Origin: an uncultured bacterium
GTDB lineage: Bacteria > Omnitrophota > Omnitrophia > Omnitrophales > Aquincolibacteriaceae
Direction of reading: 5' to 3'
Length of the DNA stretch: 64,000 nucleotides
Assembly: GCA_964562525.1 (NCBI GenBank)
Contig: CAZLTL010000002.1
Span: forward strand, 18,468 to 82,467
The position numbers were made by a program, and so were the translations under genes. The notes under the pieces are model-generated. The model was not told where the DNA came from. It made no database searches and was given only the letters and a program-made list of their open reading frames with translations. Numbering within the stretch: position 1 is the first letter of the stretch; each line of letters starts with the position of its first letter. This document shows positions 24,925 through 58,469 of the stretch, in pieces.

Positions 24925-25272
24925 TTTTACTCCGCTTAGTCAAAAACACCCCTTACAAAAATTCAAACAGCCGAAACTGCGTTCGGAACTCATTTTTGAA
25001 AAGGGCTTTTTTAACAACGCTCCGCCGGAAGCTTCGCTCTGCGCCTTTGGCGCATCGCATGTCGGAATTTTGCTAGCCGCAAAATATCATTTTTGTACAA
25101 TTTCGCCCCTCCCCGCGCCGCGCAATCTTTTTTGCCCTGAGAGGAGCTCAGCCAAAAACGCATATTTCCCTTTTTATATTCTCTCGGACGAATATAATTC
25201 TCTCGTGGCACCTTATCACTTAAATTATTTTTGCTTCACTTTGTCGGGCAACGCGCCAGGCGCTTTGTTTTT

Positions 25273-41798: not shown

Positions 41799-41968
41799 GA
41801 AATGTATGATAAATATAAATGTAAGTCAATTGAAAAATGATTATTTATTATATTTAAGGATTTTCATCTTGGCTGGGTTGAAATGGCAGGGTTTAGCAGG
41901 CACATTTCTAAGAACATTTACTAAGTTCAACTTCGGGCGTAAAGCAGTCTTCAAAGCAAGGATAGTTG

Positions 41969-44900
41969 ATGGGACGGCATCAGCAGTTCTTAAAATTCGT
42001 GGCCATTTTTGTCATCATGTGCCTTTTGGCGCAAGATGTGGCGATGGCGTTGCCATCAACGCAGCCCGAAGGCCGGAGGCCGGAGGCTAAAGGGGGGTCT
42101 TTCTCAGAGCTCCGGGTTCCGGGCTCCGGACTAAAAATTCATTCCAACTTAGGCAATGTCGACGAGTCTTTCGAAGGCACGAACGGTAAGCACATTACTT
42201 TCATTCTTGATGCACACGACTCCCTTGATGCGCAAAAGAATATCGTCCGAATCATTCAGCAGGCGACAAACTCCGGTATCAAAACCGTTTTTGAAGAAGG
42301 TTATGAAGGCGAGCTCAATACGGACGATTGGTTTGGAGCTATTGAAGATGACCAGATCCTCCGCAAAGTTTCCTACTATTATTTAGATCAGCTGAAAATC
42401 GGCGCCGCGGAGTTTGCGCATATTAACCGCCATAGGCGGTTAGGACGGAGGCCGGAGGCCACAGACCAGAGTTCGAATGCTTCTCAATCCTCCAGGCTTC
42501 GGGCTCCGGGCCCGCGAGTCGATTGGAAGCTGATCGGCGCGGATGATAAAGAAGCGTATCTCGAAAACGTGCGGGCTTTCGGTGATTCTGAAAAAGTTCG
42601 CGAGCAAATCTTACGCGACACACAAGCCATTCAGCGCGAACTGAAAGTCTTGGGCGATAAACAACTTTCACCTGAAGCTAAGAAATGGATTCTCGATTAC
42701 GAACGCTTTCATGATAACAGCCTTCCTTTGCTTGATTATTTAGGACGCTGGATCAAGCTTGCGCCTGAAAATGCTTGTCCGCTTTTGCGGCGCATTGTGG
42801 CGGCCGCGCAAGACCCTGAGATTGCACGTTCAATTCAAAAAACACGAGCCTCCGAAGTCTTAAGTGAAATTAAAACTTTCGAGGCAGCTGTTGAAAAACA
42901 TTTTTTTCCAAATAATCAAACGGCTGAAATTTGGCAGGCATGGAAAACCATGGCCGCAGTTGAAAAGCTTGCTGAGCTTAAAATCTCAAATCAAGATTTA
43001 AGTCACCTTAAAAACAATCTTAAAGCTCTCAAAACAGAAAATTTAGCGCGACAATTTGCCCGCGCGAAAAAGAATCCTGTTGTGATTTCAAAGCGCTGGG
43101 AAATGCTCATTCAAAACGCTTTGAGATTTTACGAGCTTGCACATAAGCGTGATGAAGCGGTGGAGCGAACTCTCAAAGAATGGGTCCGGAGGCCGGAGAC
43201 CGGAGACCCGATAAAAAAAACCAATCTCGCACCTCAAGCCTCCGGTCTCGGGCCTAGCAAGAACAGCTCAGCTGTTCTTGTTTTCGGTGGCTTTCATCGC
43301 GAAGGCATTACCGAAATTTTGCGGCGCAATGGATTTTCTTACACAGTTGTGATTCCAAAAATTATCGATTTTTCTAAGCGCCATCAAGCTCTTTACCGCG
43401 AAGCTATGAGTGTTGGGCCTAGGGGTTCAGGTTTCCGTCCCCAGGCGTCTGTTCAGGCGGCGCGGCCGCTTTCGAATTTTTATGACCCTGCATTTGGTTC
43501 GGAAATTAGAGCTGCTGAGGAAACAATCAAAGAAAACCCCGGGCGTGACTTGTCAGCCTCAGCCCTTTTGCTGCATGAAAAACTTTCAACAACCGCGGCG
43601 CATGGAATTGCTGGCGGGAATCTGAGCCGTCCCTCAGGTTCTCCCAACACGCGCCGCCTTTTAAATTCTGAAAAACTCCCAGGGTTGCGGGCCGCATCTC
43701 CGGGAGTTGGAACGGTTATGCCCCACGCCCGCTCCGAAAGCCGCGCTAAAAAAACAGTTGAGCAATTAGTTGATGAGGCAGAAAAGTTAATTCGAGACGA
43801 AACATCTATAAGAGGATGGTGGAAAGAAAACATTCAAAATGCGAATCAGAATCAAGCGGGCAAGGGGAGCCGCTCCACCAACTTCTCAATTGCATTTGGA
43901 GAAATCATTCCGAGGCCTTTACGTGAAGCGAAACAGTTGCTCGAGCGATTAAATGAAAGATTCTTAGCTGAACAAACGGAGGCTTACCCTACAAACGCCA
44001 TGAATAAACTCTTTTTTATTTTTTGCGGCACCTATGTAAGTCAGAAAAAAAATCTTTGGAATAAAGCTTTTAAACAGTTGCCCGAAGATAGCCAAAAGAT
44101 TTTTAATTCAGCTGCAAAGCAGCATGATGGTCTAAAAACGCTAAGCAATCTAAGCATGTATCGGGACTCTGTTTTCAAGGCAATGGCAGAAGAGAGAGAT
44201 TTTAAGCGAGCAGATGTGCTTGAGGCTATTAAGGCGAGACAAAAATTTGAACATGAAATAGATGCCCTGATTTGGTTTTCCCGCGTCATGAAGACGCCCG
44301 AAGCAGGCAAGGCTGATCCGCTAGATACTTTTTATCGAAATTATTCCAAACCGCTTGCGCGCGATGCAACCGCCACCGTTTATCATGAACTTGTCCGCCA
44401 AGTTCCGCGCGAGCAAATTACGCCCGAGTTTCGCAATGCCATGACCGCCTACCATGATCATCTGGTTGAATATCGTGACGCATTTATTTTTATTCTCTCC
44501 GAGATTGATAAACATATGCCTTTTCGCTCAGAATCGCGGCAAAACAAAAAAGCAAATAATGCTATTCCCAAAGAAGAAGAACAGAAGGCGCGACAATTGC
44601 AGAGCCGGCTGGAAGCGTATTTACCCCAATTAGAAAAGTGGAGCGGAGAGAAAAAATTATCTGTCCGGTCAGCTCAAGCGCAAAATAAAGCGGCGGTTGA
44701 AATGGCCGCGCTTTTGAATACTTACGTTGCTGACTATGTGAGCAAAAACAAACCCAATGAAAGCGTGAATGTTTTCCGCGACAGTCTCGGGAAATCTTTG
44801 CAGATTTGGGACATAGAGACGCATGTCTTTGTCGGCGGAGATAAAGACAAAAACTTGCCCGGTGACATTCGCGGCGATTTGGTGCGGGTGAGAGATTTTA

Positions 44901-47900
44901 TAAAAACCATGCGAGTGCATTTAGACGCAGACCGCTGGCAGACATTATCCGATTATTATGACGGAAATCGTCTTCATCTTGAAAAAATAGCTGGTCGATC
45001 GGAAGCGCGCGAGCCGGAAAAATTATCGATTCGTTCGATTTTTCATCCCAAGCATTTTTGGTACAGCACTGGACTTTTTGCTTTTTTTAAAATAGCGGAC
45101 TCTCTTTTTTTGAAGTGGCGGACGTTGACAATAGGCGAGCCCGATTATTGGAAGCCTCTCGATTGGATAACCAGCGTGACCTATCCGCTATCAATAGCAA
45201 ATATTGGTTTTTATTTTCTTTTTCTGTGGAGGTCTTCTTCTTGGAATGAAGCCGTCACGCAGAAAGTTGCGCACATTATTTTGACCGGAGTCCCGACGCT
45301 GTTTTTTGTCTTGGAATTCGTAGGCCCGTATATTTTTCCTTCGGGAATGACGGGGCATATTTTCGACCCCGACGATGCCGCCGCTGTTTTATTATCCGGG
45401 GTTATTCTGCGGCTACTGCATTCCACCAAGCTTCCTCCAGCAAAACGCTCAGAAGCGCGGGATTTAGCTGCGCCGGACAAGGAAGCGGTTCAACGTGTCT
45501 TTGATAAAGTCACGGAAGGCAACCCGCTTTCGGCGGAAGATTTAGAGATTGCTGTGCGGCAAGCGGTTGCTGAAAGCCGTGCGTGGTTAATTGGGCGGGT
45601 TAAAAATGCTATGAGCGCGGACGAGCTGAAAAAAATTCAGGAAGAGGCTGCCGCAAAAAAAACCGATGAAAACGAGATCATTCTTTCTGGAAAAAACTGC
45701 GCGGGGCAATGCGGGTATTCATCGGCGGATGTGATGAACCGGCTTTACTCGATTTTGGGCGATAAGGCGCTGATTCGCCGCATTCAAGCGCATGACGAGT
45801 TTGGTGTGAAGCAAAGGCAAAAGCATCTTTTTGTTTTAGCGGCATTGCCTGATCAGTCTAAAAGTTTTCTGATCGACCTAACTTTTACTCAATTTTTGAA
45901 TTCAGGCTGGCTGCCGCTTGATTTAATTGGCCGTGAATTAAAAAACCGTGATGGCAAGCGCGAAGCGCAGGGCCTCAGTTCGCTTTTGCTTCACGGGTAT
46001 GTTGATCTCAACCGTAACAAAGATTTTTTGACCGATTATGCCTACAGTTTTATTTCAGGTTCGGAAGATGATGACGCGCATTATCCCGCCCAATTCTTAC
46101 CCGCGGACTTGATAACTCTTGCGCCTAACGCTATTTCACGGCCCTTGTCTGATTTTTTAACGTTGGATGTGAACTCTGAAGCCGCTTTCGAAACCGCGCT
46201 TCAAGAGAGAGAGCTTAATTTTGATTTGCTGGCCCAAGAGCGCCGTGAGCGTTTGAAGGAAATGTTTTTAAAATATGCTGCGCGCTCTGAAGTGCGCGGG
46301 CTTTCTCAGGCTGAAGCAGAAAAAATTTCAAAGCTCCATGCAATTTATATGGATGTCATGCGGAATAAATCAGGCGCGTGGAAAGACGGGGCTGAAAAAG
46401 TAGAGTCTGCCGGATTTTTAGTCACAGGGGTTGGTTATTATCCGATTGATACGGACAATGAACTCGAACATTTGCTGGCAATTTTTCCAAAAATTCGCGA
46501 TAAGACAAATTCAAGTCAACCTCTTCGCTTTCTTGATTTAGGATCAGGCGCCGGCAAGCTTTTGGTACAAGCGTTGATGCTCGATAGCAATCTTAATGGC
46601 GTTGGCATTGAATATGATCAAGTGCTGCATGAAGCTTCTTTGGATCTCGCTGAGGAAGCCGCCAAGCAAAAACTCATTTCTCGTGAGAGGGCGCGTTTTT
46701 TGAAAGGGGATTTTTCTGCCCCTGAGTTTGAAAAAGAGATTTCTTCCGCGGATGTTCTTTTCCACTATCAGGCAAGCTCCTTTGATCCCGCGCCCCTTGA
46801 GCAAGCACTGATTCGTTCGATGCGGCCTGGCACCAAGCTTTTAGTGTATGGTTCATCCCGTGATTATTTTCGAAGGTTATCGGCAGACCTTGGCTTTGAA
46901 CGAGTGTTTGATGAGGCCGCGCGAGTGATAACTTACAAAAGAAACTTTATGCCGCGCGAGCCCATCTCTTATCAAGATACCGCCGTTGTTTTTGTGCACA
47001 CCGCGGGCATGGGCGATCATTCGCTGCCGTTGGCATTGGATAACCGCCGCGTGATTAAAGACGCAGTAAAAGCGATGCAGAATTTAGGCGGCAAGGAACT
47101 CGAATTTCATATTGATGGGCATCCGAGCTATTTACCGCCGCGACCCGACCGCATCCGTTCCAGACAAAAAAATACAGCCGCGCTGACTTCGCCCTTTAGT
47201 TACGATTTTGATCCTGTCCGCAAGGCGCAAAGGTTTGTTATGGCCGGCGGTGAGTGCGAGGCTTGCTTTCAAGCCGCGCTCACTTCACTGCTGGAAGAAG
47301 GCAATGAGGAAGCAACGCCGAAAGAAATTCACTTAGCCGCGGACGCTGTTTACCAAGTTGTTCCGGTCCTGAATGAAGATGACCCCCGCGGAGTGCATAA
47401 TGAATCTGCTCCGGTATCCGCGGAGCATCTTTTGAAAATGGTTGAGCAAACGGCAGCGCTAAAACAGCTGAGAAATTCCAGCGAAGTTACCCGTCCGCAA
47501 TATTTTTTAAACGGAAGCCCGGCGTCTTCAAAAACAAAAATTATTATTTGGAGCAATCATCGCGAAATGATTGATTGGATTCGCACGGATCAAAAAAGAT
47601 CTGAAGCGCGTGAAGCCGCAGCTATTCCCGTTAGGCCGGCGAATTTAACGGTTAAAAAATTTGACCGCGCACCGGCTGCGTTAAAGCACTGGGTTACCAA
47701 GGCGGAAGAAGAGCCTTGGGGTGTTTTGGAAGAAAACAGTCCGCCGTTTGTGTTGCAAGACGGTGTTTTGACATTGGCGCTTGGCGAGGATAACGCGAAA
47801 TATTTTTTCCGGCCTTTCCCAGAACGAACATTGGGCCTTGAAACGGTTCAAATCAATGAATCTTGGACGGAAGAGGGACAAATAAGATTTACAGTTGTCA

Positions 47901-50900
47901 AAAAACTTCCGGGCAATCGGCTGATTGTGAAAGGGTTTGTTGTCTCGAATGAATCAGAAGAAGTTTCCATCAGCGCTAAAACAAAAATCCGCGTCCGCAA
48001 AATTTTAGAGTTAAAAGAAAATATTGCCGGGCGCGTTGCCGGAGGAACGGTTTATCCGCAAAGCGTGATTGCTGCCGAGACGCCTAAAAGAAAAATACTC
48101 CCAACCTTTTTGCCCGTTGAAAAGGTTGTCGTTCCGACTGTCGAAATTGCCCAGGTGGCAAACATCCCTGAAAATAGCCCAGTGAAAATGGTAGCGAGGA
48201 AAAAATTAGCCGTCATTGCCGCGCTTCCGGCTGATTTTGATTGGGAAAAGCTCTCCGCACAGTTGCCCGCGTTTGAAAAGAATGAACTTCTCGGAGAAAC
48301 TACCGAGCGTGGGTATTTCAACTTACGCGTTGGCGAGAAAATGGTTTATGTCATGACGAATTTGGGGGTCAAAGACAAGCGCGAAGTTTTTGTTCGATCT
48401 GCCGAGGTTATCGGCAAGGGATATCGGTTAGTTTTAGGTTTTTCAGGCACGGATCAAACCACCACGCTGTGGATGGGCCATTTTCGCACGCGAGCTTTTG
48501 ATCAAGCCGCGAATTCAAAAACAGGCACCGAGATTTTTGAAATTTTAGATGAAGAGACTTGGACAGAAAAGTTTTTTGCGGAGCTTTTGCTTAAGCCGGA
48601 TGAGAAAAGCTGGGAAGAAATTCTAAAGCCTTTTGGAAATGAGATTGCGATGAATTTAGGCAAGGTTTATCAGAATGGTTTTCGCAAGGTTAAATTGGGA
48701 GATGATTTGTGGGCCGAAATCAGTGTTGCACCGCACAAATACGCAGGCTATTCGATACAAGTCGTGTCCGTTCGGCCGGAAGATGACTTGCTTCGGGTCG
48801 AGCTTTTTCTGACCAGCCCCGACGGTTTAACTAATGTGACATTGATTCGGTATGTATCCAGCGAAAAGGAGAAAGCTCAAAGCAAAGGCGCTGCTTTGGG
48901 AAAAGAAGTTTTTTACCGCCGGCTCTTGACCGAAGCCGATAGCATAGATTTAAGAGCCGGAAAAGAAATTGCCAGAAAAACAAAGCGCGAAGAGAATGCC
49001 GCCATTTTTCAAGCCCTCCCCGCTGATTTCATCGCGACCTTATCTCCGTTAGAGCAAAAAGTTGTCGCGCAGCTTGCTCAAAATCCGGAAATTTCAAATC
49101 AAGAAATTGCGAAGGCTTTGAATTCTTCTAAGCCGTCGGTGAGCAATGCGATTCAGAGGATTCGATTCAAAGCGAAAGTCAGAAATTTGATTCCGAAACT
49201 CGAAGAAAAAATCGGGCGTTCCGAAGCGCGGATTTTAGATTACGAAAAAGTCAGCGATATGGAGTTAACGGATTCAGTTCGGCAGGCTTGGTTCGCGAAG
49301 TACAAGCTAGGCATGGTTGAGCACGCGCTTGAAATTATTGATTTTTCAGGTAACACGCGTGACGCGCGCAAAGATGTCGGCACTCAAGCGTATGGCTTTT
49401 CATTGCCTGGCGATTCCAAGGGTGTTTTTGTCGCGTTTCCATTCGCGCAAATGGAAGGGGAGCGCGACAACGGTTATTTCGCTCTCTTTGATCAACAGGG
49501 CGAAATGGTGGGCGAAGGGCTTTATTCCGCGGCGGTTATTTCCGACAGTAAGCGGAAAATTCTAACTTTAAGGTTTCAGGTTTTACCCGAATATCGCAGT
49601 CAAGGTTATGGCCGAGTCATGACTGAAGCGATTCGTTATTTTGCGGATCAGCTTGATTCCGAAATGCAGCTTTTCTTTCATTTTAATTCGGACGAAGTCA
49701 ATAATCTTGCTTTGCGAAAATCGTTAACTGGGCTTGGGTTTCAGGAAATACCCCAAGTGTCGCATATGATGCAGCTTCCACGCTTGGCTTCTTCCCGTTC
49801 CGAAGCGCGCGGCACAGATAGCCAAGATCTCGATCGATTAGCGTATCTTTGGGGGCAGTATACGGAGGCGCTCAAAGAGAATCCCGTTCAGCGGTCTCAT
49901 GCGGGGACTGCTTTTTCAAGATGGCTTATGACGCAATCCGCGCTTGATTTGGGTGCCGGAGCGTATAGCTTTGTGGATACGTTGAAAAACTTAGGCAATC
50001 CTAATACCTACCGCATGGACACGAAACCTGTTCGGCACTCCGACTGGGGGACTTACGCAACACACTTGCAGCAGTCTTTTTACAATCCTTGGCCGCTTGG
50101 AGATGAGTCACTCAAAATTATTTATAGCCATTGGGCTTTAGGCGGAGAAGTTCCCGGGCTTTACCCAAGCGCTTGGGATATGCCGCTTGAAAAGAATCCG
50201 GATGCTACGTTTGCAAATGAACTGAAGCGCACGCTTCATCCCGATGGATTTGCTTATTTTGAATTAGGTTTTGAGCCCAACCCCGATCTGGTTCGCGCGT
50301 TGCGCCGTGCTGGCTTGCACGTTCAGTCGCCACCGGAGCACGCAGAAGATTTTGGAGAGCAATCTTTAGCGGTGATTGTGACGAAAAAACCATTTGCCGA
50401 TGTGATCAATCAAATTCAGGCTGAATTGGAAGCGAATAATCCGCGGCTTGCCGAAAATGTAAATCAAGAAGTCAGAGGAATGCGCTCCGAGGCGAGGCCA
50501 ACAGAAAATTTCAAACCGCAAGTGATTCAGCATCGTGCTAACACTCGGGATTTTATTGAGGCCGCTTATGAGGCCGGCGCGGATGGGTTTGAAATGGATA
50601 TTCAAATGACAAAAGACGGGGTCATGATTTTAAATCACGATCCATTTCAAATTGGCAATGCAGCCCACTTCTCCGTAGAGCTGAATTATTCAGAGCTTAA
50701 AGCAGCTAATCCCGAACTTTTGACTTTGAAGGATGCGTTAAATTTGCCGGTGTTGCGTCAAAAGACGGCTTATTTGCATGTTAATAATTTGGCGACCATG
50801 CCTTCTGTGCGCGAGAAACTGAAGCAAAAAGGCAAAGAGGCTCTTTTGGATAACTATGATGTTAGGGCCGTTTCTGCGATTCAAAAAGAAATTCAAAATT

Positions 50901-53900
50901 CAGCAGGACTATCGCGCCTTGTTTTTTCATCCTTTGATGTTAAGCAACTGTTGCTTCTAAGAAAAGAAGCCGTCTCAGCAAGGTTCATTTTGGATACGGA
51001 TTACGGTGCCAACGATCCTGAAATAAACCAGGTTTTGGATTTGGCAGCAGAATACAAGCTGACAGGTGTGGGGCTTCCTGGTGAAAGGATAACTGTCGAC
51101 TTGCTTCAAGATGTTAATGCTCGCGGCCTTCAGGCTGATTACGGCGCCTCTCCGGAGATTTTGCGGGCTTTGATGCCGCTTAAAACCGGAAACCTTGTTG
51201 TTGTTGATGATGTTGCCGCAACGAGAAAAATTTTGACGAGTGAAGAGGAAGAAAAAGCACACTCAAAAATGCGTGCGGTACGATTGAATGGTGAATTGAG
51301 GCCGACTCAAAGCTCATTCCTAGAACGGCATGATCCGCAGTGGAAAATTTTGCGCGAACAATATCTCGATGGAATATTGCAACGCGCAAAGCAAGATGCC
51401 GGTGACTCAAAAAATCCCGTCATAAAAGTGCTGGTTTTAGGCTCAAGCTCAGGCGAAGAACTTGTCCGAGCTTATTATGAAATCGTGACTTATTTGGAAA
51501 GCCGCGGCGAGAAACTTGCACGGACGGCTGCAGATGAAGGTTGGAAACTGCAAATTACCGGAATTGAGAAAGACGATGTTGTTGCCGAACGTGCACGCAA
51601 AAATTTGCAGGGCGAAACACCTTTCTTCGCTTATGACCTTGATGTTGAACCGAACCGAACTTATATCGAAGCTTTGCTTCAACGCGTCAGCCGCGATTCA
51701 GATTTGGTTGCGGAAGCGATTGAAGTGCGAACTCAAAACGCGGTGGAAGCTCTTAAAGAAACAGATTCCGCGCATTTGATTTTAGCCAACAATGTTTTTT
51801 ATTTACTCGGCAGCGTCTATCCACGCGAAGACCGCGCAGCGATTGAGCTGTTGTCGCGGCGATTCCGCAATTCTGTGATTGCGACAACCTACGATTGGAA
51901 TACCCAAATATACGCTTTAGGCGGCAAACCTGGCGAAAAAGAGTTGCCTTTTGTGCGTGCTGAAAGCAAAACTCTTGCAAAATACATTCCGGACGAGACG
52001 GCTTATTTGTTTTTTTCGCCCAATCCCGATTTTAATTTAGTGGCTTCTTTGCGCTCCGAAGCGCGCGGTTTTTTTACGAAAGCGTGGAATTTAGCTAGCA
52101 GCCGGGATGCGCGTTTGAAGGTTGCGCAGAACTGGCTTGAAAAAGGCCTTGTTGATCTCGAAGAGCGAAAGGAAATTACAAAAGACGAAGCGCAAAAACT
52201 TTTGTCCGCTGCCCGCGAGAATCGCGACGTGGGCGTATTGCTTGAAATTCTTGGCATTCACTTAATTTTGAAAGTGACGCCGCATCCCGGAGCTTTTGGT
52301 ACCACGGCCGCCATGACCGGGCTCGCGACGGGACAATGGTGGCTTGTCCCGCTTTACTTTTTAACGGGAATTTTCCGCGGCATAGCGACATTTGCTTTAA
52401 TTCGTAAAACAAAGCTCCCGCATAAATGGTTTTTAATTTTAGGCTCGGTCATTCCTGTCGCAGGAAATTTCTCAGTTCCGGCTTATATGCTTCGGCAGCC
52501 CGAATTACGGCAAACAGGGAAGGCAATGATGGCAGTGGCAAAACTGAGACTCAAACAAAAAGCGCGAATCATCCCGTCTCACGATAAACGGTCGGAAATG
52601 CGTGAATTCAAAGCGGAGTGGAATGAAGAGGCCCTGACTCAAATTGAAAAGGCAAACCCGGGGACGAGGGCGAAGATTCTTCAGGTTCTCGAAATACCGC
52701 TTAGTCAATTAGTGTTAGATCAGGATTATGATGATCAAGACGGCCGAAGCGTTTTAATTTATTTGGATGAGCCGGTTGATTTTGTTGATAAGCAAACCGG
52801 CTTGCGGGAAACAATACGCACGATCAAAGTCAAAGGCGCTGCTTTTGAAAACGAAGCCGTTTTACCGGATTTCAATCTTTTACGTTTAGATCCCGGTGTT
52901 GCGCCTGACCAGGCCGAAAATATTGGCAGGAAGCTCATGGAGCCCTCTTTTACAAAGGAAGGGCGCTTTTTGCTGACACCCAAACGACCGACGGCGGAAG
53001 GCGCGATGCGGCTTGATATGGCGCGGCAAGAGTACCAAATTTCACAGAAATCTTTTTATGCGGGTTTGCCCGTTCCTATCGCGCTGGGAATGGCTGAATT
53101 TCAAAATAAAAATTCGGACGGCACATCCGCGGCTGCGGTTATTTTGGGCGTGGCTTCAGCGCGTGATTTGCGCGTCACTAATTTAATCGGGTTTAAAACG
53201 CAGGCGTACTTACAATCTATTGCTCAGCCGATGGATTCCGCTGAGCGAGCCGCGCTTAAAGCTTTTTTTGAAGAAGATGTTGTGCGGCTTGCCGGAGCTC
53301 AGGGGCAGGCTCTGCGGGCTTTTAACGACCGCGGATTTATTCACCCGCAATTTCACTTGGGGAATGGCGGGGCTAACATTGATCTCGACGAAGGTCTCGC
53401 ATCGATTTATTTAATGGACCACGAAGGTTCGCTTGAAAGAAACAAGCTGACCGAGGCGCAGTTTTTAGGCTGGCTTGTTTTAGGTCTCAAACAAGCCGCA
53501 AAGCGCATACACGATTTAACCGATAAGCGTTATTACTCCGGCCCCAAGCTGAATTGGACATCCGCCTTTATTCGGGGATATTTTGGCCGCTATGCTGACA
53601 GACCTGAAATAAAAAAATATCTTTCACCGAAAAATTCCGCACTTTTTATCGAAGACTTACACGCTATTTTGTTTGACGCTGAAAAGCAGCCTGTTTTTGA
53701 AATCAATTCACCGCTTACGAGGCTTTTGGCTCAAATGTATGGGCTTAAAGAACTGCGGCGCTCTGAGGCGCGAAACGCATTAGAGATTTTTGATGAAGCG
53801 GCGGACAATTTACTGGCTTATCCCAAAGCGCTTCTTCATTCGCGCGGCTTAGAACCCTATTTGGACGCGTTCGACCGCGAGCATTATGTCTGGGATGAAG

Positions 53901-56900
53901 CCCAGCAGCATTGGGCGTCGAAAGATTTTCATCCCACAATCACGGGTGCGAAGCGGCTTACTTTGGGGTCTTGGGAAGATATTCAGCGTGCTTCACCCGA
54001 TGAACACGCGCGCATGAAGAATTTTGTAGCCATTCGTTTAAACACAACAGAAGGAGTGCGCAGCTTTTATGCTTTTGATGACCACGGCTGGTCGCTTCAG
54101 GCTTATGCCGAGGCGCATTGGCGCCGAGAAGTTCCGGCATTCGGCAACACGCAAATATTTATAGACAAGCACGGGGATGATCGAAAAGTGCATGGCGGAC
54201 AACACTACAAAGAAATGTTTCAAGCGATGCTTCGTCAGAGTCCGAGTGCGAACAATGACATTGATTTTGATATGGGCGGGTTTAATAACACGCTTTGGTT
54301 TTCGGGATTTATTCCGAAAGAAAATCATCATCGGTATCATGCGAACATGGGTTGGTTTCGAGAGATGTTGGCCGGCTTTCCAAGCAACCAAGCTGTTCTG
54401 CTTAATGTCGATACCGACGCGACGGAGTTTATTGTAGGCGAATGGAAGAACGAAACGCCGCTTGGCTTAGGCGAAGACGATTTTGAATCGCTTGCCATTG
54501 ATTTAACCAATTTGCGCGACAAATACAGCCTAACTCCGCTTACGGCGCATTTCACCACAACCCATTTTGAAAATGAAAATTTGGCGGATTTTTCTTTGCA
54601 TTCAAACCGCATTCAATATGGCGATACCGAACTTGCGCGTTTTCTTCCCCGTGTCGCGCCTTTTATTTATTTTGTAAAAGATCAGCCTGTTGAATTACGC
54701 GATCAGGCGATTGAGCAAGCGGCGCAAGAGCATGCCGCGCAATGGGAGCGGGATTTTGGCGCGAAATTTAACCGCTCCGAAATGCGCAAGCATGAAATTT
54801 CGGCGGAGCTCTTTTTTGTTCGCAGTTTTCAGGAAAAATGGGCGCGGCGGACTTTCATTGAACAGCATTGGCTTTTGCGCGCTATTGCGCGCGGACTTGA
54901 GCTTTCTTCTCAAGATGCTGCGTTTTGGGTTTTGGAATGGGATTTTGCCAAGTTCGCTGTTTTGAATCGGCTTGCGCAAAATTTAAAAAGGTTTAAAGGT
55001 TTAAAACAAGAAGATCTGGCGCGGGGGATGAGCTTTGAAACGCTTATCTTCGATGTGATGGAAGATATCCGTGATCCGGAGTATCGATTTGTTCGGAAGT
55101 TTTTAGGATGGGAAGAGCCCCCTGCTGATTTTTTTAGAATGGCGGATGAGGCTGTCAGCCGTGTTTCAGATTATGTTAAGTTGCTCGAGCCGGATCAAGC
55201 TCGCTATGGAGCTTGGGTAATTCGAAATGCCGCGCTTGATTATCAGTCTTACTTTGATTATTTGGTAAATGTCATCGGCCGCGATGATTTTTTTGAATTT
55301 GATAGTGAAGTTGAAAAAATAGAGCAAAAATTTATTTTGTCGCGCCGCTCCGAAATGCGGGCAGATTGGAATGATGAGATCGGACTTTGGAGTTCGCCGC
55401 AGGTAATTGAACGATTGAGTCAGTTTGTTCTTGATCCGCTCAGCGTTAGTTTATGGCGGCTTAAAGCAAGCGCTTGGCGCATTCCCGAAAGCGATGTCAA
55501 TTCGGTGCGGGATGAAGTTTTACGGCGATCGAAAGAATGGCCGCGGGCGGCGATATTTCAACGGGAAGATTTTTCGGCGCTTTCCTTTCTTCATCTTCCA
55601 TGGTCGTATCTCAAAGCCCGTTCTGCATTGATGGATGATCCGGATCGATTTGCTGTTTATTCGCTTTGGGAAGAATTAGAGAGCCTTTCGAAAAAAATTC
55701 GTGAATCCCGTATTTATACCTATGAAACCATTCGCACTGCCGCAAGATATTCGGGCATTTGGGGGCATGGAACAGCAAGCTCAGTTCTCCGCGAAGCTAG
55801 AAGTGATTATGAGCGCTGGCGGTTCAGAGCGGTTCACGACCATGATTTAGAAGATGAGTGGGCAATGCTCAATATCATGATTGAAGGTGAAATTAGCGCT
55901 GGAGAAGGAGCGCCTTTTGCCGGTATGGAATTGAGTGGAAATACGCCTGATTCATGGGGGCCGTTTTGGATTTTAACCCGCGGTTTTGAAAGTTTTTATC
56001 AATTTCATCCTTCAGGACGCGAAGATCATTGGGCTTATTTGGTTCCCAACCAAGCGGCGATCGACTTTTTTGAAAGAGGCCTTGAGCTTGCGGTAAGCAA
56101 AAAATTGATGACCGAAGAAGATCGACAGGATGTTTGCTCCAAGCTGGTGACTTACGATGAGTTTAACGCTTTAGAGGAACTGCTTTGGAATATTCGTGAT
56201 CAAAAAATAAGTATTAGCGAAGCGGTCGCGCAAGCCGGCGTTACGCGCTCTGTTCGCTCCGAAAGTCGTGCTAGCTCAAATGACACTGTCGATGAGGTTC
56301 AGCTTGCGAAAAATGAGGAGAGATATGCACAAATTATGAAGACCGCATTGAAGCGCGTGAAGCCCGGGCAAACGGGCGAGTTGGTTGAAATTGACAGCGG
56401 GCTTTCTGCAGAAGAAGATGCGCAGTTTGATCAAGAGCTGAAGCAACTTTCGGTTTATTTTGCTGAGGCGGGAGATTCAGCAAAAGCCGCCGTGATGTTT
56501 TGGTTGATTAAGAGCGACGAAATGGCTGCTGATCTTGCAAAGGATGTGATCTCTCTCAAAGGTTTGGGAGAAGATCGGCAGGTTATGATTCGTACCACGA
56601 GCCCCCCTTCGGCATTGCTCAGGGCAGGCGAGCTGCGGACCACGAATAGTCATAGTCAAGCGGTCAGCGGAACGAAGTCACGGATTTTAATCAGCCGCAC
56701 CGAGCTTGGCTCGATGAGCGAAGAAAATTTCAAAGCCTTCTATAAGTTTTTCTATCAAAACCAAGAGCTGGAGCTGTCCGTCTACGGTTCCGGCTCAAAA
56801 AATCCAGAAGAGGAAACGCGTGTCGGCTTGCTTGAGGCCGTCCCCTCGGCAAAAACCGGCCGCGTTTCTTTCTTCTTGGACCCCTCTTCTGCAGCGCAAG

Positions 56901-57127
56901 GAGGGGAAGCGATTGAGTTTTCTTCTGTTCCGGGCACAAAAACATTACGCGGCAAAAAGATTGCCGCAGCGGATATTCGTACAGTCGAAGGCATGGCATC
57001 CGGATTTTTAGCCGCCATGGGTATGGAATATACCGAAGACAAAGGCTTTGTCCGCGTGACGAGCGGGATCGAAATCAGCCGCTTCTTCGAGTTTCTCTCT
57101 TGGCAAGTATTCGCTGCTTCAGCGTAA
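41969..57127 (+). CDS. giant (5052 aa) multi-domain, multi-pass membrane protein. Order: signal peptide; TraB/GumN/Tiki-like domain; TM cluster; SAM-MTase; LuxR-type HTH; GNAT; GDPD; CheR-like MTase; TM cluster; long alpha-rich C-terminal region. 17 R-S-E-A-R-type motifs
   Basis: Single 15.2-kb open frame. TTG at 41966 or ATG at 41969 with AAGGA 7 nt upstream. Signal peptide MMGRHQQFLKFVAIFVIMCLLAQDVAMA. Domains read from sequence: ITFILDAHDS...VLVFGGFHREGITEILRRNGFSYTVV (TraB/GumN GAGHL-like); LDLGSGAGKL (class I MTase); LSPLEQKVVAQLAQNPEISNQEIAKALNSSKPSVSNAIQRI (LuxR/sigma-4 HTH); RSQGYGRVM (GNAT); HRANTRDFIEAAYEAGADGFEMDIQMTKDGVMILNHD (GDPD); VLVLGSSSGEE...HLILANNVFYLL (CheR-like). Hydrophobic helix clusters at ~45050-45420 and ~52250-52500. 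Confidence 0.9.
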   Translation: MGRHQQFLKFVAIFVIMCLLAQDVAMALPSTQPEGRRPEAKGGSFSELRVPGSGLKIHSNLGNVDESFEGTNGKHITFILDAHDSLDAQKNIVRIIQQATNSGIKTVFEEGYEGELNTDDWFGAIEDDQILRKVSYYYLDQLKIGAAEFAHINRHRRLGRRPEATDQSSNASQSSRLRAPGPRVDWKLIGADDKEAYLENVRAFGDSEKVREQILRDTQAIQRELKVLGDKQLSPEAKKWILDYERFHDNSLPLLDYLGRWIKLAPENACPLLRRIVAAAQDPEIARSIQKTRASEVLSEIKTFEAAVEKHFFPNNQTAEIWQAWKTMAAVEKLAELKISNQDLSHLKNNLKALKTENLARQFARAKKNPVVISKRWEMLIQNALRFYELAHKRDEAVERTLKEWVRRPETGDPIKKTNLAPQASGLGPSKNSSAVLVFGGFHREGITEILRRNGFSYTVVIPKIIDFSKRHQALYREAMSVGPRGSGFRPQASVQAARPLSNFYDPAFGSEIRAAEETIKENPGRDLSASALLLHEKLSTTAAHGIAGGNLSRPSGSPNTRRLLNSEKLPGLRAASPGVGTVMPHARSESRAKKTVEQLVDEAEKLIRDETSIRGWWKENIQNANQNQAGKGSRSTNFSIAFGEIIPRPLREAKQLLERLNERFLAEQTEAYPTNAMNKLFFIFCGTYVSQKKNLWNKAFKQLPEDSQKIFNSAAKQHDGLKTLSNLSMYRDSVFKAMAEERDFKRADVLEAIKARQKFEHEIDALIWFSRVMKTPEAGKADPLDTFYRNYSKPLARDATATVYHELVRQVPREQITPEFRNAMTAYHDHLVEYRDAFIFILSEIDKHMPFRSESRQNKKANNAIPKEEEQKARQLQSRLEAYLPQLEKWSGEKKLSVRSAQAQNKAAVEMAALLNTYVADYVSKNKPNESVNVFRDSLGKSLQIWDIETHVFVGGDKDKNLPGDIRGDLVRVRDFIKTMRVHLDADRWQTLSDYYDGNRLHLEKIAGRSEAREPEKLSIRSIFHPKHFWYSTGLFAFFKIADSLFLKWRTLTIGEPDYWKPLDWITSVTYPLSIANIGFYFLFLWRSSSWNEAVTQKVAHIILTGVPTLFFVLEFVGPYIFPSGMTGHIFDPDDAAAVLLSGVILRLLHSTKLPPAKRSEARDLAAPDKEAVQRVFDKVTEGNPLSAEDLEIAVRQAVAESRAWLIGRVKNAMSADELKKIQEEAAAKKTDENEIILSGKNCAGQCGYSSADVMNRLYSILGDKALIRRIQAHDEFGVKQRQKHLFVLAALPDQSKSFLIDLTFTQFLNSGWLPLDLIGRELKNRDGKREAQGLSSLLLHGYVDLNRNKDFLTDYAYSFISGSEDDDAHYPAQFLPADLITLAPNAISRPLSDFLTLDVNSEAAFETALQERELNFDLLAQERRERLKEMFLKYAARSEVRGLSQAEAEKISKLHAIYMDVMRNKSGAWKDGAEKVESAGFLVTGVGYYPIDTDNELEHLLAIFPKIRDKTNSSQPLRFLDLGSGAGKLLVQALMLDSNLNGVGIEYDQVLHEASLDLAEEAAKQKLISRERARFLKGDFSAPEFEKEISSADVLFHYQASSFDPAPLEQALIRSMRPGTKLLVYGSSRDYFRRLSADLGFERVFDEAARVITYKRNFMPREPISYQDTAVVFVHTAGMGDHSLPLALDNRRVIKDAVKAMQNLGGKELEFHIDGHPSYLPPRPDRIRSRQKNTAALTSPFSYDFDPVRKAQRFVMAGGECEACFQAALTSLLEEGNEEATPKEIHLAADAVYQVVPVLNEDDPRGVHNESAPVSAEHLLKMVEQTAALKQLRNSSEVTRPQYFLNGSPASSKTKIIIWSNHREMIDWIRTDQKRSEAREAAAIPVRPANLTVKKFDRAPAALKHWVTKAEEEPWGVLEENSPPFVLQDGVLTLALGEDNAKYFFRPFPERTLGLETVQINESWTEEGQIRFTVVKKLPGNRLIVKGFVVSNESEEVSISAKTKIRVRKILELKENIAGRVAGGTVYPQSVIAAETPKRKILPTFLPVEKVVVPTVEIAQVANIPENSPVKMVARKKLAVIAALPADFDWEKLSAQLPAFEKNELLGETTERGYFNLRVGEKMVYVMTNLGVKDKREVFVRSAEVIGKGYRLVLGFSGTDQTTTLWMGHFRTRAFDQAANSKTGTEIFEILDEETWTEKFFAELLLKPDEKSWEEILKPFGNEIAMNLGKVYQNGFRKVKLGDDLWAEISVAPHKYAGYSIQVVSVRPEDDLLRVELFLTSPDGLTNVTLIRYVSSEKEKAQSKGAALGKEVFYRRLLTEADSIDLRAGKEIARKTKREENAAIFQALPADFIATLSPLEQKVVAQLAQNPEISNQEIAKALNSSKPSVSNAIQRIRFKAKVRNLIPKLEEKIGRSEARILDYEKVSDMELTDSVRQAWFAKYKLGMVEHALEIIDFSGNTRDARKDVGTQAYGFSLPGDSKGVFVAFPFAQMEGERDNGYFALFDQQGEMVGEGLYSAAVISDSKRKILTLRFQVLPEYRSQGYGRVMTEAIRYFADQLDSEMQLFFHFNSDEVNNLALRKSLTGLGFQEIPQVSHMMQLPRLASSRSEARGTDSQDLDRLAYLWGQYTEALKENPVQRSHAGTAFSRWLMTQSALDLGAGAYSFVDTLKNLGNPNTYRMDTKPVRHSDWGTYATHLQQSFYNPWPLGDESLKIIYSHWALGGEVPGLYPSAWDMPLEKNPDATFANELKRTLHPDGFAYFELGFEPNPDLVRALRRAGLHVQSPPEHAEDFGEQSLAVIVTKKPFADVINQIQAELEANNPRLAENVNQEVRGMRSEARPTENFKPQVIQHRANTRDFIEAAYEAGADGFEMDIQMTKDGVMILNHDPFQIGNAAHFSVELNYSELKAANPELLTLKDALNLPVLRQKTAYLHVNNLATMPSVREKLKQKGKEALLDNYDVRAVSAIQKEIQNSAGLSRLVFSSFDVKQLLLLRKEAVSARFILDTDYGANDPEINQVLDLAAEYKLTGVGLPGERITVDLLQDVNARGLQADYGASPEILRALMPLKTGNLVVVDDVAATRKILTSEEEEKAHSKMRAVRLNGELRPTQSSFLERHDPQWKILREQYLDGILQRAKQDAGDSKNPVIKVLVLGSSSGEELVRAYYEIVTYLESRGEKLARTAADEGWKLQITGIEKDDVVAERARKNLQGETPFFAYDLDVEPNRTYIEALLQRVSRDSDLVAEAIEVRTQNAVEALKETDSAHLILANNVFYLLGSVYPREDRAAIELLSRRFRNSVIATTYDWNTQIYALGGKPGEKELPFVRAESKTLAKYIPDETAYLFFSPNPDFNLVASLRSEARGFFTKAWNLASSRDARLKVAQNWLEKGLVDLEERKEITKDEAQKLLSAARENRDVGVLLEILGIHLILKVTPHPGAFGTTAAMTGLATGQWWLVPLYFLTGIFRGIATFALIRKTKLPHKWFLILGSVIPVAGNFSVPAYMLRQPELRQTGKAMMAVAKLRLKQKARIIPSHDKRSEMREFKAEWNEEALTQIEKANPGTRAKILQVLEIPLSQLVLDQDYDDQDGRSVLIYLDEPVDFVDKQTGLRETIRTIKVKGAAFENEAVLPDFNLLRLDPGVAPDQAENIGRKLMEPSFTKEGRFLLTPKRPTAEGAMRLDMARQEYQISQKSFYAGLPVPIALGMAEFQNKNSDGTSAAAVILGVASARDLRVTNLIGFKTQAYLQSIAQPMDSAERAALKAFFEEDVVRLAGAQGQALRAFNDRGFIHPQFHLGNGGANIDLDEGLASIYLMDHEGSLERNKLTEAQFLGWLVLGLKQAAKRIHDLTDKRYYSGPKLNWTSAFIRGYFGRYADRPEIKKYLSPKNSALFIEDLHAILFDAEKQPVFEINSPLTRLLAQMYGLKELRRSEARNALEIFDEAADNLLAYPKALLHSRGLEPYLDAFDREHYVWDEAQQHWASKDFHPTITGAKRLTLGSWEDIQRASPDEHARMKNFVAIRLNTTEGVRSFYAFDDHGWSLQAYAEAHWRREVPAFGNTQIFIDKHGDDRKVHGGQHYKEMFQAMLRQSPSANNDIDFDMGGFNNTLWFSGFIPKENHHRYHANMGWFREMLAGFPSNQAVLLNVDTDATEFIVGEWKNETPLGLGEDDFESLAIDLTNLRDKYSLTPLTAHFTTTHFENENLADFSLHSNRIQYGDTELARFLPRVAPFIYFVKDQPVELRDQAIEQAAQEHAAQWERDFGAKFNRSEMRKHEISAELFFVRSFQEKWARRTFIEQHWLLRAIARGLELSSQDAAFWVLEWDFAKFAVLNRLAQNLKRFKGLKQEDLARGMSFETLIFDVMEDIRDPEYRFVRKFLGWEEPPADFFRMADEAVSRVSDYVKLLEPDQARYGAWVIRNAALDYQSYFDYLVNVIGRDDFFEFDSEVEKIEQKFILSRRSEMRADWNDEIGLWSSPQVIERLSQFVLDPLSVSLWRLKASAWRIPESDVNSVRDEVLRRSKEWPRAAIFQREDFSALSFLHLPWSYLKARSALMDDPDRFAVYSLWEELESLSKKIRESRIYTYETIRTAARYSGIWGHGTASSVLREARSDYERWRFRAVHDHDLEDEWAMLNIMIEGEISAGEGAPFAGMELSGNTPDSWGPFWILTRGFESFYQFHPSGREDHWAYLVPNQAAIDFFERGLELAVSKKLMTEEDRQDVCSKLVTYDEFNALEELLWNIRDQKISISEAVAQAGVTRSVRSESRASSNDTVDEVQLAKNEERYAQIMKTALKRVKPGQTGELVEIDSGLSAEEDAQFDQELKQLSVYFAEAGDSAKAAVMFWLIKSDEMAADLAKDVISLKGLGEDRQVMIRTTSPPSALLRAGELRTTNSHSQAVSGTKSRILISRTELGSMSEENFKAFYKFFYQNQELELSVYGSGSKNPEEETRVGLLEAVPSAKTGRVSFFLDPSSAAQGGEAIEFSSVPGTKTLRGKKIAAADIRTVEGMASGFLAAMGMEYTEDKGFVRVTSGIEISRFFEFLSWQVFAASA

Positions 57128-57235: not shown

Positions 57236-58333
57236 ATGGGTTTTAAGTGCGGTATCGTCGGGTTGCCCAATGTCGGCAAATCCACAATTTTTAATGCGAT
57301 CAATAAAGAGTCGCGCGCGCAGGCGGCGAATTATCCGTTTTGCACGATTGAGCCCAACAAGGGAATTGTTCCCGTTCCCGATAACCGCCTTGAAGTTCTG
57401 ACTAAGCTGATTAAACCGCAAACCAAAGTTCCGACCACGGTTGAGTTTTATGATATCGCCGGATTGGTTAAAGGGGCGGCGGAAGGCGAAGGTCTCGGCA
57501 ATAAATTCTTAACCCATATTCGCGAAGTCGAAGCGATCATGCATGTGGTGCGCTGTTTTGAAGACGCGAATATTTTGCATGTTTCCGGCAGCGTGAACCC
57601 CGCGCGCGACATTGAAGTGATTGATACCGAGCTTTGCCTGAAAGATCTTGAAACCATCGGCACGCGTTTTACCAAGAATGAAAAGCTCGCGCGCAGCGGC
57701 GATAAAGAAGCTTTGGCGATTCAGCCCACTTTAGACAAAATTAAAAAAGCACTCGAGGCAGGCACGCCTTTGCGCAAAATCGGTCTCACCGAAGATGAAA
57801 AGTTTACGGTGAAAGAATGCAGCTTTCTGACTTTGAAGCCTGTGTTTTATTGCGCAAACGTGGCTGAGGGCGATTTGCCCAATGGCGGCCCGCTTGTCAA
57901 TGAAGTGCGCAAAATCGCAGATGCCGAAGGCGCGAAAGTGGTTGTGATCTCCGGTAAAGTGGAATCTGAAATCATTGAGCTTTCTGAAGAAGAACAAAAA
58001 AGTTTTCTCGAAGCCTTAGGCCTTGAAGAGCCCGGCATGCATAAGCTGATTCGCTGCGGATATGAAACTTTGAATTTGATTACTTATCTTACCGCTGGTG
58101 AAAAAGAAGTTCGCGCCTGGACGATTATGCGCGGTATGACCGCGCCGCAAGCTGCTGGCGTGATTCATAGCGATTTTGAGCGCGGTTTTATTCGCGCAGA
58201 AGTCATGAGTTATGAAGACTTGGTTGCCTGCGGTTCTGAAAAAGCCGTTAAGGAAAAAGGCCTCCTTCGCGTCGAAGGCAAAGAATACGTCGTCAAAGAC
58301 GGCGATGTTATGTTGTTTCGCTTCTCAGTCTAG
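57236..58333 (+). CDS. ychF: ribosome-binding ATPase YchF (Obg family)
   Basis: 365 aa. G1 GIVGLPNVGKST. TGS domain. Typical YchF length. Confidence 0.95.
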   Translation: MGFKCGIVGLPNVGKSTIFNAINKESRAQAANYPFCTIEPNKGIVPVPDNRLEVLTKLIKPQTKVPTTVEFYDIAGLVKGAAEGEGLGNKFLTHIREVEAIMHVVRCFEDANILHVSGSVNPARDIEVIDTELCLKDLETIGTRFTKNEKLARSGDKEALAIQPTLDKIKKALEAGTPLRKIGLTEDEKFTVKECSFLTLKPVFYCANVAEGDLPNGGPLVNEVRKIADAEGAKVVVISGKVESEIIELSEEEQKSFLEALGLEEPGMHKLIRCGYETLNLITYLTAGEKEVRAWTIMRGMTAPQAAGVIHSDFERGFIRAEVMSYEDLVACGSEKAVKEKGLLRVEGKEYVVKDGDVMLFRFSV

Positions 58334-58386
58334 CTCGCCACATTCAAAAACGATCAACTTATAGCGTTGCGATCTTTTTACATTCT

Positions 58387-58410
58387 ACAACCTTTGCAAA
58401 GTTGTTTTTT
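58387..58410 (+). terminator. Rho-independent terminator after ychF
   Basis: ACAAC-CTTTGCAAA-GTTGT stem-loop followed by TTTTTT. Confidence 0.5.
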
Positions 58411-58469
58411 ATGTGCCAATCAGGTACTTTTTACCAATACACTTCCGTATTAAAAAAATTAAAAGAAAT

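Follow-up and report, generated by a model that had tools for sequence, protein, structure and literature searches.

A very large Omnitrophota family of capped modular proteins punctuated by a recurrent R-S-E-x-R pentapeptide

The DNA considered here is a 64,000-nucleotide stretch (the window; positions 18,468 to 82,467 of contig CAZLTL010000002.1, GenBank assembly GCA_964562525.1) from an uncultured bacterium of the phylum Omnitrophota. It contains an uninterrupted giant open reading frame (ORF; 41966..57127, + strand, as are all features of this protein given below) for a modular multi-enzyme protein, a member of an Omnitrophota-specific family whose named relatives belong to Candidatus Omnitrophota. 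The protein is punctuated by a short peptide, RSE[AMS]R, which is present in 14 exact copies against 0.024 predicted from its composition, bearing out the expectation of the original prediction, made from the sequence of the window, that chance would give far fewer than one. The three commonest pentapeptides of the protein are RSEAR (8 copies), RSESR (3) and RSEMR (3), and a 15th site, RSEVR at residue 1440 (nt 46283), had been overlooked. The 17 sites originally listed included all 14 exact copies at their correct positions, together with three N-terminal variants which are weaker: they are real strings (RRPEA, RRPEA and RRPET at residues 37, 161 and 408), but lack the final Arg, lie inside the N-terminal domain and mark no module boundaries. 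Inter-site intervals range from 150 to 540 amino acids (aa) without any period, and not from 125 to 265 aa or multiples of this, as had been claimed. In a six-frame scan of the window, the frame of the giant ORF contains the 15 sites, compared with 9 scattered single matches elsewhere. The length of 5053 aa given originally corresponds to the 5053 codons counted from a TTG codon, from which residues are numbered here, but the database copy of the protein (P0001, 100% identical) begins one codon later and has 5052 aa, and the likely start is this ATG at 41969.

The protein opens with a basic and hydrophobic segment (aa 2-29, 41969..42052; Kyte-Doolittle peak 2.37 at aa 11-29), which forms a helix at residues 2-28 in the structure model and is predicted to be a Sec-like signal peptide or signal anchor. 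A signal-like N-terminal segment is present in 102 of 157 complete family members. It is followed by the N-terminal domain (N-domain; aa ~48-545, 42107..43600), which was identified by fold search alone, as searches against Pfam, NCBIfam and the PDB gave nothing significant (no Pfam or NCBIfam match at 0.01, no PDB sequence match). The ChaN-like model PF04187 scored below threshold (E 0.085, in 3 of 25 members), and PF01963 was not matched. The domain model has the parallel β-sheet α/β core found in ChaN, Ere/Bcr135, TraB and the C2 domain of RRSP, that is, a TIKI/TraB/ChaN/EreA-type core, with a helical insert of ~215 aa (aa 195-410). The fold supports the TraB/Tiki-like assignment made originally.

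The catalytic set of the TIKI superfamily consists of two His and two Glu residues (E3900, H3902, E3930 and H4030 in RRSP; H85 and E113 in Bcr135), with a His-to-Glu spacing of 28 residues in both RRSP (H3902 to E3930) and Bcr135 (H85 to E113) (PMC6254334). The N-domain reproduces this set in pattern and spacing: D82-A83-H84 (42209..42217), which is invariant, matches the acid-x-His element; E111, the invariant member of the pair E110-E111 (42293..42298), lies 27 residues past H84 and matches the second acidic residue; and the invariant G441-G442-F443-H444 (GGFH; 43286..43297), used here as the family pattern, is a Gly-x-x-His-type element with the second catalytic-type His. In an alignment of 25 sequences (A1), the invariant residues are D82, A83, H84, Q90, E111, G112, G115, A148, G441, G442, F443 and H444, and H152 and R155 are nearly so. 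On the basis of the model and this pattern, the N-domain is predicted to be a hydrolase of the TIKI/TraB/ChaN/EreA fold with an intact His/acid set. It differs from the TIKI/TraB/PrgY/ChaN/erythromycin-esterase superfamily in its ~215-aa helical insert, in falling below the thresholds of the curated models and in invariably being an N-terminal fusion to a giant modular protein. The loops of the N-domain tolerate in-frame insertions, such as ...SFPRKRES... in P0005 and ...IPAKAGIH... in P0007, which presumably resemble the translated short interspersed repeat elements of many uncultured bacteria.

The three weak motif variants lie in or next to poorly ordered parts of this N-terminal region. 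The first RRPEA (aa 37-41, 42074..42088) is located in the disordered stretch after the signal segment (residues 28-47; predicted local distance difference test, pLDDT, <50), the second (aa 161-165, 42446..42460) in a low-confidence loop of the N-domain (residues 158-172, pLDDT <50), where the orthologue P0004 has a full RPEAR at the equivalent position (site 160), and RRPET (aa 408-412, 43187..43201) at the end of helix 376-408 and the start of a low-confidence loop. A degenerate copy, GSEIR (aa 511-515, 43496..43510), is part of helix 508-522 (pLDDT >90), which is packed on the N-domain, and a degenerate or related copy is present 50-100 aa past GGFH in many relatives.

The strict sites divide the rest of the protein into cassettes, several of which can be followed into the two closest relatives, P0002 and P0003. 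Motif 1 (RSESR, aa 589, 43730..43744) closes the N-terminal cap and is aligned to ARSESR in P0003. Motif 2 (RSESR, aa 854, 44525..44539) is conserved in P0002, with a block of 83% identity beginning exactly at this site, and motif 3 (RSEAR, aa 1011, 44996..45010) stands 3 aa beyond the end of a block common with P0002. Between motif 3 and motif 4 (RSEAR, aa 1161, 45446..45460; RSETR in P0002 and RSEMR in P0003, with homology blocks starting here) lies a hydrophobic, membrane-type cassette (aa 1016-1160, 45011..45445; hydropathy peak at 1101-1119 plus weaker ones). Motif 5 (RSEVR, aa 1440, 46283..46297; RSEAR in P0002) and motif 6 (RSEAR, aa 1878, 47597..47611, the exact end of a block common with P0003) enclose a methyltransferase cassette (aa 1445-1877, 46298..47596), in which a DOT1-like, class I S-adenosylmethionine (SAM) methyltransferase match (PF08123, E 3.2e-5) occupies residues 1508-1627, between two motifs as originally stated. 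The next cassette (aa 1883-2417, 47612..49216) has a C-terminal winged-helix or sigma-70 region-4-like helix-turn-helix (HTH) at 2361-2398 (PF13412, E 5.1e-5; TIGR02937 weak).

Motif 7 (RSEAR, aa 2418, 49217..49231; RSESR in P0002) and motif 8 (RSEAR, aa 2611, 49796..49810; RSEMR in P0002) delimit a GNAT-like cassette (aa 2423-2610, 49232..49795), and motif 9 (RSEAR, aa 2840, 50483..50497), an exact match, precedes a cassette (aa 2845-3362, 50498..52051) with a glycerophosphodiester phosphodiesterase (GDPD) domain at 2858-3056 (PF03009, E 9.7e-15) plus a further region. The placement of these two domains in the original prediction was largely right: the weak GNAT match (PF13508, 2506-2563) falls inside its inter-motif segment, but the GDPD match starts 13 aa past its motif and not 8. 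Motif 10 (RSEAR, aa 3363, 52052..52066), which is kept in both P0002 and P0003 and starts a homology block, opens a second hydrophobic cassette (aa 3368-3541, 52067..52588; hydropathy peak at 3461-3479). The remaining sites are exact matches supported by the alignment of relatives, namely motif 11 (RSEMR, aa 3542, 52589..52603) and motif 14 (RSEMR, aa 4461, 55346..55360), or by alignment and homology blocks together, namely motif 12 (RSEAR, aa 3932, 53759..53773) and motif 13 (RSEMR, aa 4270, 54773..54787). All Pfam matches of the window protein (methyltransferase, HTH, GNAT and GDPD) sit within inter-motif segments.

Motif 15 (RSESR, aa 4764, 56255..56269), followed by residues that are disordered in the structure model, precedes the C-terminal cap. 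The C-terminal region (aa 4769-5053, 56270..57124) includes the conserved C-terminal domain of the family (~190 aa), which is common to 89 of the 97 relatives described below, and ends in the tail ...VFAASA. Nearly all complete members end in a hydrophobic residue, any residue, Ser or Ala, and a final Ala (VFAASA, VVAYSA, AFAVAA), an apolar tail which we take to resemble those recognized in ssrA-type tagging or by tail-specific (PDZ) proteases. The model of this domain is mediocre, and its fold matches are generic (Rossmann-like).

The first 5000 aa of the protein, used as a query, retrieved 97 true relatives of 2.8-7.8 thousand amino acids (kaa) from sources named Candidatus Omnitrophota or Omnitrophica, and ~200 related giants of 0.8-7.8 kaa were examined overall, those with a name being without exception from Candidatus Omnitrophota. 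All relatives share residues ~30-530 of the query, and the remainder is common to at most four. A profile of the N-domain, searched against 1.84 billion representatives, gave matches to 9,171 clusters with an E-value of 1e-3 or lower and to 5,353 with 1e-30 or lower, always with the domain at the N-terminus, and the size of the family is set accordingly at no fewer than 9,171 clusters (50% identity level). When one genome of each species was scanned, 170 relatives came to light, the named ones all from Omnitrophota, with at least four paralogues in several metagenome-assembled genomes (MAGs). A search with the cargo region alone, for motif proteins without the cap, returned only the window protein and one orthologue. 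The Pfam content of the 97 relatives is highly divergent, including radical SAM enzymes, glycosyltransferases, kinases, Nudix, HD, SecA, sigma-70, helicases and more; protein-kinase domains occur in a minority of family members. Complete members of 800-1200 aa also exist, which are essentially cap plus cap, and most of these keep 2-4 motifs.

Two relatives illustrate the range of cargo. P0066 (4,541 aa) carries a pathway-coherent set, comprising a glutamine-dependent NAD synthetase (CN_hydrolase plus NAD_synthase), a Nudix domain, an isochorismatase/nicotinamidase-like domain and NAPRTase, which judged by their domain assignments would together make up an NAD salvage set. Embedded in P0077 (L002 10001-22102) are a complete sigma-70 (regions 2-4) and a stretch of SecA size with SecA domains, each within a motif-bounded segment.

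R-S-E-x-R is the commonest pentapeptide in almost all of the 97 relatives, with up to 18 copies, while a few use RAEVR, RPEAR or RSEQR, the last of these unusual variants occupying all four sites of P0066. Family-wide, RSELR was counted 218 times against 1.1 expected, RSEVR 155 against 0.7, RSEMR 136 against 0.2 and RSEAR 96 against 0.9, that is, 100-650 times above expectation. The motif as defined for the family, R-[S/A]-E-(L/V/M/A/I)-R, outnumbers every other pentapeptide in the ~200 related giants; this definition leaves Phe at position 4 (RSEFR) outside. An independent set of 104 new sequences from the profile search has 2.05 motifs per kaa. The motif is also specific to the giants at their own loci, where giant proteins have 29 sites in 14.6 kaa and the neighbouring ORFs, taken in every frame, have 3 in 47 kaa. 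Chance or low complexity as the origin of the motif is ruled out by the 14-15 sites against 0.024 expected, by the family-wide excess, and by the specificity for frame and locus. The giant protein represents a very large and so far undescribed family of capped modular proteins in Omnitrophota. The motif is its universal punctuation at the level of the peptide, and the number of unrelated, self-contained cassettes between the caps ranges from zero to dozens (enzymes and membrane segments, and in relatives also SecA and sigma-70).

Comparison with P0002 and P0003 shows that these cassettes are shuffled between relatives. Every high-identity block (50-92%) has both of its edges 0-14 aa from a motif in either partner, and the order of the blocks differs. 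For example, the GNAT cassette forms a block of 92.5% identity running from motif to motif (2415-2615 here, 2012-2212 in P0002), the second membrane cassette (3362-3558) is 87% identical to residues 1179-1379 of P0002, and the methyltransferase cassette (1447-1881) is 80% identical to residues 2039-2473 of P0003, while other cassettes have no counterpart at all. The motif is kept in orthologues where they align, at the peptide level and across the huge family as a whole: 11 of 12 aligned sites are retained in P0002 and 6 of 7 in P0003, with the fourth residue drifting among A, S, T and M.

The same relation between motif and cassette edge holds across the family. Among 1,951 BLAST blocks between non-orthologous members, 51% of starts fall within 30 aa after a motif, compared with 10.5% for random placement, and 45% of ends within 30 aa before a motif, compared with 11.7%. 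Where a block runs through a motif, at 20-60% identity, the partner has an aligned motif in 36% of cases. None of the Pfam domains mapped in five proteins straddles a site (rough joint chance ~2e-5); for example, the SecA domains of P0077 occupy a motif-to-motif segment of SecA size (2434-3320), Bac_transf of P0025 occupies segment 2928-3137, and ROK of P0057 stops 10 aa short of a site. In 174 of 191 proteins, the distance from GGFH to the first strict motif is 50-150 aa; the last motif lies a median of 187 aa (interquartile range 138-202) from the C-terminus. The sequence around the motif is nearly information-free, with Ser, Pro, Ala and Thr favoured at -3 to -1, Ser, Ala and Thr at +1, and acidic residues after it. 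Sites are often paired: 171 pairs are no more than 55 aa apart, and the stretches between them show an excess of S, P, T, N, A and Q and a deficit of W, Y, C and F. The motif thus sits in short, flexible, Ser/Pro/Thr-rich linkers at the edges of cassettes; homology-block edges, Pfam placement and the positions of first and last sites agree on this, as the original prediction of inter-domain linkers had proposed.

The conservation of the motif can be attributed to the peptide. In the MAG JAUYMS01, which has four paralogues (L023, L035, L059 and L070), Leu occupies position 4 at each of the 25 sites (24 RSELR and one RAELR), and these sites use all six Leu codons, both CGN and AGR codons for Arg, and both TCN and AGT for Ser. 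Leu is invariant despite this spread of codons, which indicates selection on the peptide. An explanation in which the motif is mainly a nucleic-acid feature, such as a short recombination joint or an mRNA signal for cassette swapping, with the peptide as a by-product, would account for recombination breakpoints between relatives that fall within a few residues of the motif, and for a synonymous bias inside it. In the window gene, all 15 motif Ser codons are TCN, compared with 30% AGY elsewhere in the gene, and in 475 sites from 71 loci, AGY makes up 7% of motif Ser codons against 32% outside, AGR 8% of first-Arg codons against 24%, TCC 51% against 31%, and CGG 46% of last-Arg codons against 33%, the first Arg being mostly CGC or CGT. 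The original claim that selection acts on the peptide and not the DNA holds in the main; the codon variation among instances is real but not random, and there is a significant secondary codon bias. This bias could possibly come from codon context, from an mRNA feature or from descent of the sites through neighbouring residues with xCN codons (Ser, Ala, Pro and Thr). As the last of these would explain the bias, as a DNA site would require more fixed nucleotides than the motif has, and as the peptide is invariant while the DNA varies in JAUYMS01, a mainly nucleic-acid role is considered very improbable. A DNA repeat or recombination site as the main cause was rejected in view of the JAUYMS01 sites spelled with all six Leu codons.

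The fourth residue of the motif varies between genomes in a way that points to a reader. The dominant residue in each protein accounts for a fraction of 0.60 of its sites, compared with 0.41 +/- 0.008 under shuffling, and paralogues of one genome match in this residue at a rate of 0.33, compared with 0.12 between genomes (p <2e-4). The JAUYMS01 paralogues sharing one variant have N-domains that are only 39-49% identical. The simplest explanation of the shared variant is a genome-specific protein that reads the motif. A motif that serves the structure of the linker and nothing else, as a helix cap or a salt-bridge staple that no dedicated protein reads, would be consistent with the possibility of i/i+2 ion pairs among Arg, Glu and Arg and with the location of some copies in helices, but four invariant residues between unrelated folds are not expected of a generic linker, the fourth residue is uniform within a genome and different between genomes, and the motif is absent from other proteins of the same loci; such an element is accordingly given very little weight.

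The best-supported reading, to which we give an even chance, is that the reader is a protease. In this explanation, the gene would encode a modular polyprotein comprising the signal-like helix, the ~500-aa TIKI-type cap, the cassettes and the ~190-aa C-terminal cap; the pentapeptide R-[S/A]-E-(L/V/M/A/I)-R would be the recognition site of a putative sequence-specific endopeptidase, which would cut the precursor at the linkers to release separate modules. As to the identity of this enzyme, the protein's own TIKI-like domain is a tentative candidate, and on balance a doubtful one. It always co-occurs with the motif, its superfamily contains site-specific endopeptidases, and its catalytic pattern is intact, the D-x-H, the Glu at +27 and the GGFH matching the 2His/2Glu set of the RRSP endopeptidase. 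A single enzyme per genome, acting in trans, would fit the data at least as well.

Several observations weigh against the polyprotein reading or against the cap as its enzyme. No covariation between N-domain columns and either Ser or Ala at position 2, or Leu as opposed to Val, Met or Ala at position 4, survives multiple testing, and N-domains from genomes that share a variant do not resemble one another more closely than other N-domains do. The superfamily also contains esterases and non-enzymes (PMC6254334). An N-domain behind a Sec-type signal is predicted to be periplasmic, while most of the cargo appears to be of cytoplasmic type, and 60 of the 157 complete members have no further hydrophobic segment. 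Some matches lie inside conserved structured elements, for example RSELRFLVYG in the C-terminal domain and copies in the helix that succeeds the N-domain, so that not every match can be a linker site. As to the gene neighbourhood, no conserved protease or secretion genes were found beside the window gene or two relatives, the neighbouring genes of the three loci being ordinary and not conserved.

In the main rival to cleavage, a protein would read the motif without cutting it, and the motif would serve in docking, assembly or modification (for example, phosphorylation of its Ser, modification of Arg, or capture by a translocase or chaperone) on an intact, membrane-anchored multi-enzyme scaffold. 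Everything that speaks for a genome-specific reader of the peptide agrees with this just as well, a 2026 preprint (bioRxiv 10.64898/2026.06.07.730766) reads such giants as membrane-anchored architectures, and the motif copy in the structured helix packed on the N-domain could represent a docking mode. The protein-kinase domains of some members would also suit it, but these are confined to a minority. Against it, sites are often doubled at distances of 10-55 aa within disordered spacers, an arrangement more in keeping with redundant cleavage than with stoichiometric docking, minimal cap-plus-cap members still keep 2-4 sites, and a scaffold has no obvious need for an identical mark at every junction. 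We regard docking as unlikely, while placing it ahead of the other rivals.

If the precursor is cut, the cutting might alternatively take place in a host or prey cell, with the protein as a secreted multi-effector toxin of MARTX logic and a prey protease, or its own activated domain, as reader. MARTX toxins, giant proteins of Vibrio and its relatives, likewise have conserved ends and exchangeable internal cassettes, and the window protein shares such mosaic cassettes between conserved ends, as well as the TIKI-type fold of the MARTX effector RRSP (PMC6254334) in its N-domain. MARTX toxins release their cassettes proteolytically at inter-domain sites, a step that in the window protein is putative. 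The N-terminal signal, the 60 of 157 members without further membrane segments, the mosaic content and the proposal that Omnitrophota are predators or parasites are in keeping with a toxin. However, the window protein has a Sec-type signal and not type I secretion, its junction is a strict pentapeptide and not Leu-X, and the cargo is not of a cytotoxic kind but looks like everyday metabolic and housekeeping machinery (NAD salvage enzymes, SecA, sigma-70, sugar-nucleotide enzymes). Searches with Pfam and NCBIfam detected no glycine-rich RTX repeats, the ends being TIKI-like and Rossmann-like domains, and no MARTX cysteine protease domain or any other peptidase family in the window protein; no type I secretion transporter genes adjoin it, its neighbours being housekeeping genes, and no secretion-system genes lie beside the loci. 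The genome-specific variant argues further for a reader encoded by the same genome, and a toxin is considered improbable.

MARTX toxins and viral polyproteins are the nearest analogues in function. In viral polyproteins, such as those cut at picornavirus 3C or potyvirus NIa sites, one ORF encodes many units separated by a short junction consensus, and the protease is often part of the chain. The Omnitrophota proteins likewise have a short consensus between independently folding units, but are cellular genes with several paralogues per genome and shuffled cassettes, and their cleavage would be putative. In multi-core precursors of ribosomally synthesized and post-translationally modified peptides, such as the cyanobactin precursor PatE, repeated short recognition sequences let one enzyme excise many products; there the cassettes are 6-8 residues long, as opposed to enzymes of 150-900 aa, and the recognition sequences and proteases are different.

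The window contains a second, divergent family paralogue (58470..64000, + strand; ORF 58365-64000), which has at least 1,840 aa, runs off the end of the window and shows the DAH plus GGFH pattern. Its N-domain has 22% identity in alignment A1 and lacks the H152/R155 element, and it has two motif-like sites, a canonical RSEMR and the off-consensus RSEFR. The two giant ORFs are separated only by a gene for a ychF-type GTPase (57236-58333). Just upstream of the giant gene, and divergent from it, lies a 553-aa ORF (40137-41798, - strand) with an N-terminal hydrophobic segment and no Pfam match, which proved unrelated when compared with the unannotated gene beside P0077, and this is followed by a gene for a 23S rRNA intervening-sequence protein (PF05635; 39730-40164, - strand). 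A further ORF of 2,195 aa (25231-31818, + strand) has a strong A-over-T skew (0.36-0.39), and its product is of coiled-coil type, rich in Glu, Leu, Ala, Lys and Gln and internally repetitive, with a sub-threshold TBP-TOTE as its sole Pfam match. The window also contains a DUF4301 gene (32841-34322, + strand; E 9e-158), and the other neighbours are ordinary housekeeping genes (PGM, ABC-2 transporter, CorA, RlmN-like).

Giant genes are a hallmark of Omnitrophota, and whether their products act as single chains or as cut pieces is an explicit open question. Previous studies treated ORFs above 20-30 kaa (Seymour 2023; West-Roberts 2023), and West-Roberts et al. (2023; bioRxiv 10.1101/2023.11.21.568195) suspected that the giants are cleaved into several products, but the missing information on cleavage points prevented the splitting of the proteins and blocked structural analysis. 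The 2026 preprint (bioRxiv 10.64898/2026.06.07.730766), which has 176 complete genomes, defined a ‘multi-enzyme’ class with signal peptide plus membrane helices and a cut-off of 10 kaa. The window protein has the many Pfam domains, the signal peptide and/or membrane helices and the Omnitrophota origin of this class, while its 5 kaa lie below the cut-off. More generally, it resembles the multi-enzyme giants of the same phylum in being a long ORF tiled with unrelated Pfam enzyme domains, with a signal peptide and membrane segments, but those giants have at least 10-30 kaa, and the present family, of 0.8-7.8 kaa, is defined by two caps and a pentapeptide. The archaeovorin/dockerin-type features described by West-Roberts et al. 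(HEAT-repeat or dockerin arrays, C39 or S8 peptidase domains) were not detected in the window protein by Pfam or NCBIfam, nor does it exceed 30 kaa. The junction motif, the shared cap and the TIKI-like domain are not mentioned in the literature on Omnitrophota giant genes (Seymour 2023, West-Roberts 2023 and the 2026 preprint), and a full-text literature search for the motif strings returned only misspellings of ‘research’ and unrelated alginate-lyase motifs. The original statement that no described system uses the motif is thus upheld in the literature searched.

A junction motif that can be recognized in sequence turns the question of cleavage into a testable hypothesis, as it predicts exact fragment boundaries for thousands of proteins; a dataset for a cultured Omnitrophota enrichment, that of Ca. 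Velamenicoccus archaeovorus (closed genome CP019384), is PRIDE PXD025008. It also offers a rational way of splitting the giants ahead of annotation and structure prediction, defines a new family, comprising >9,000 clusters, whose cap is a candidate protease, and may provide an orthogonal pair of protease and site for biotechnology. A broader proposal, which is possible but speculative, is that Omnitrophota make a substantial share of their enzymes as Sec-targeted polyproteins, cut at a genome-specific pentapeptide by a TIKI-superfamily protease, either the cap or a relative in trans. In some lineages these would include embedded SecA, sigma-70 and NAD salvage sets, and the cassettes would be freely shuffled owing to the universal junction signal. 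If the sites are indeed cut, this would be the first cellular system routinely expressing ordinary enzymes as shuffled polyproteins, and the virus-like strategy of ‘one ORF, many proteins’ would be in routine use by a cellular organism.

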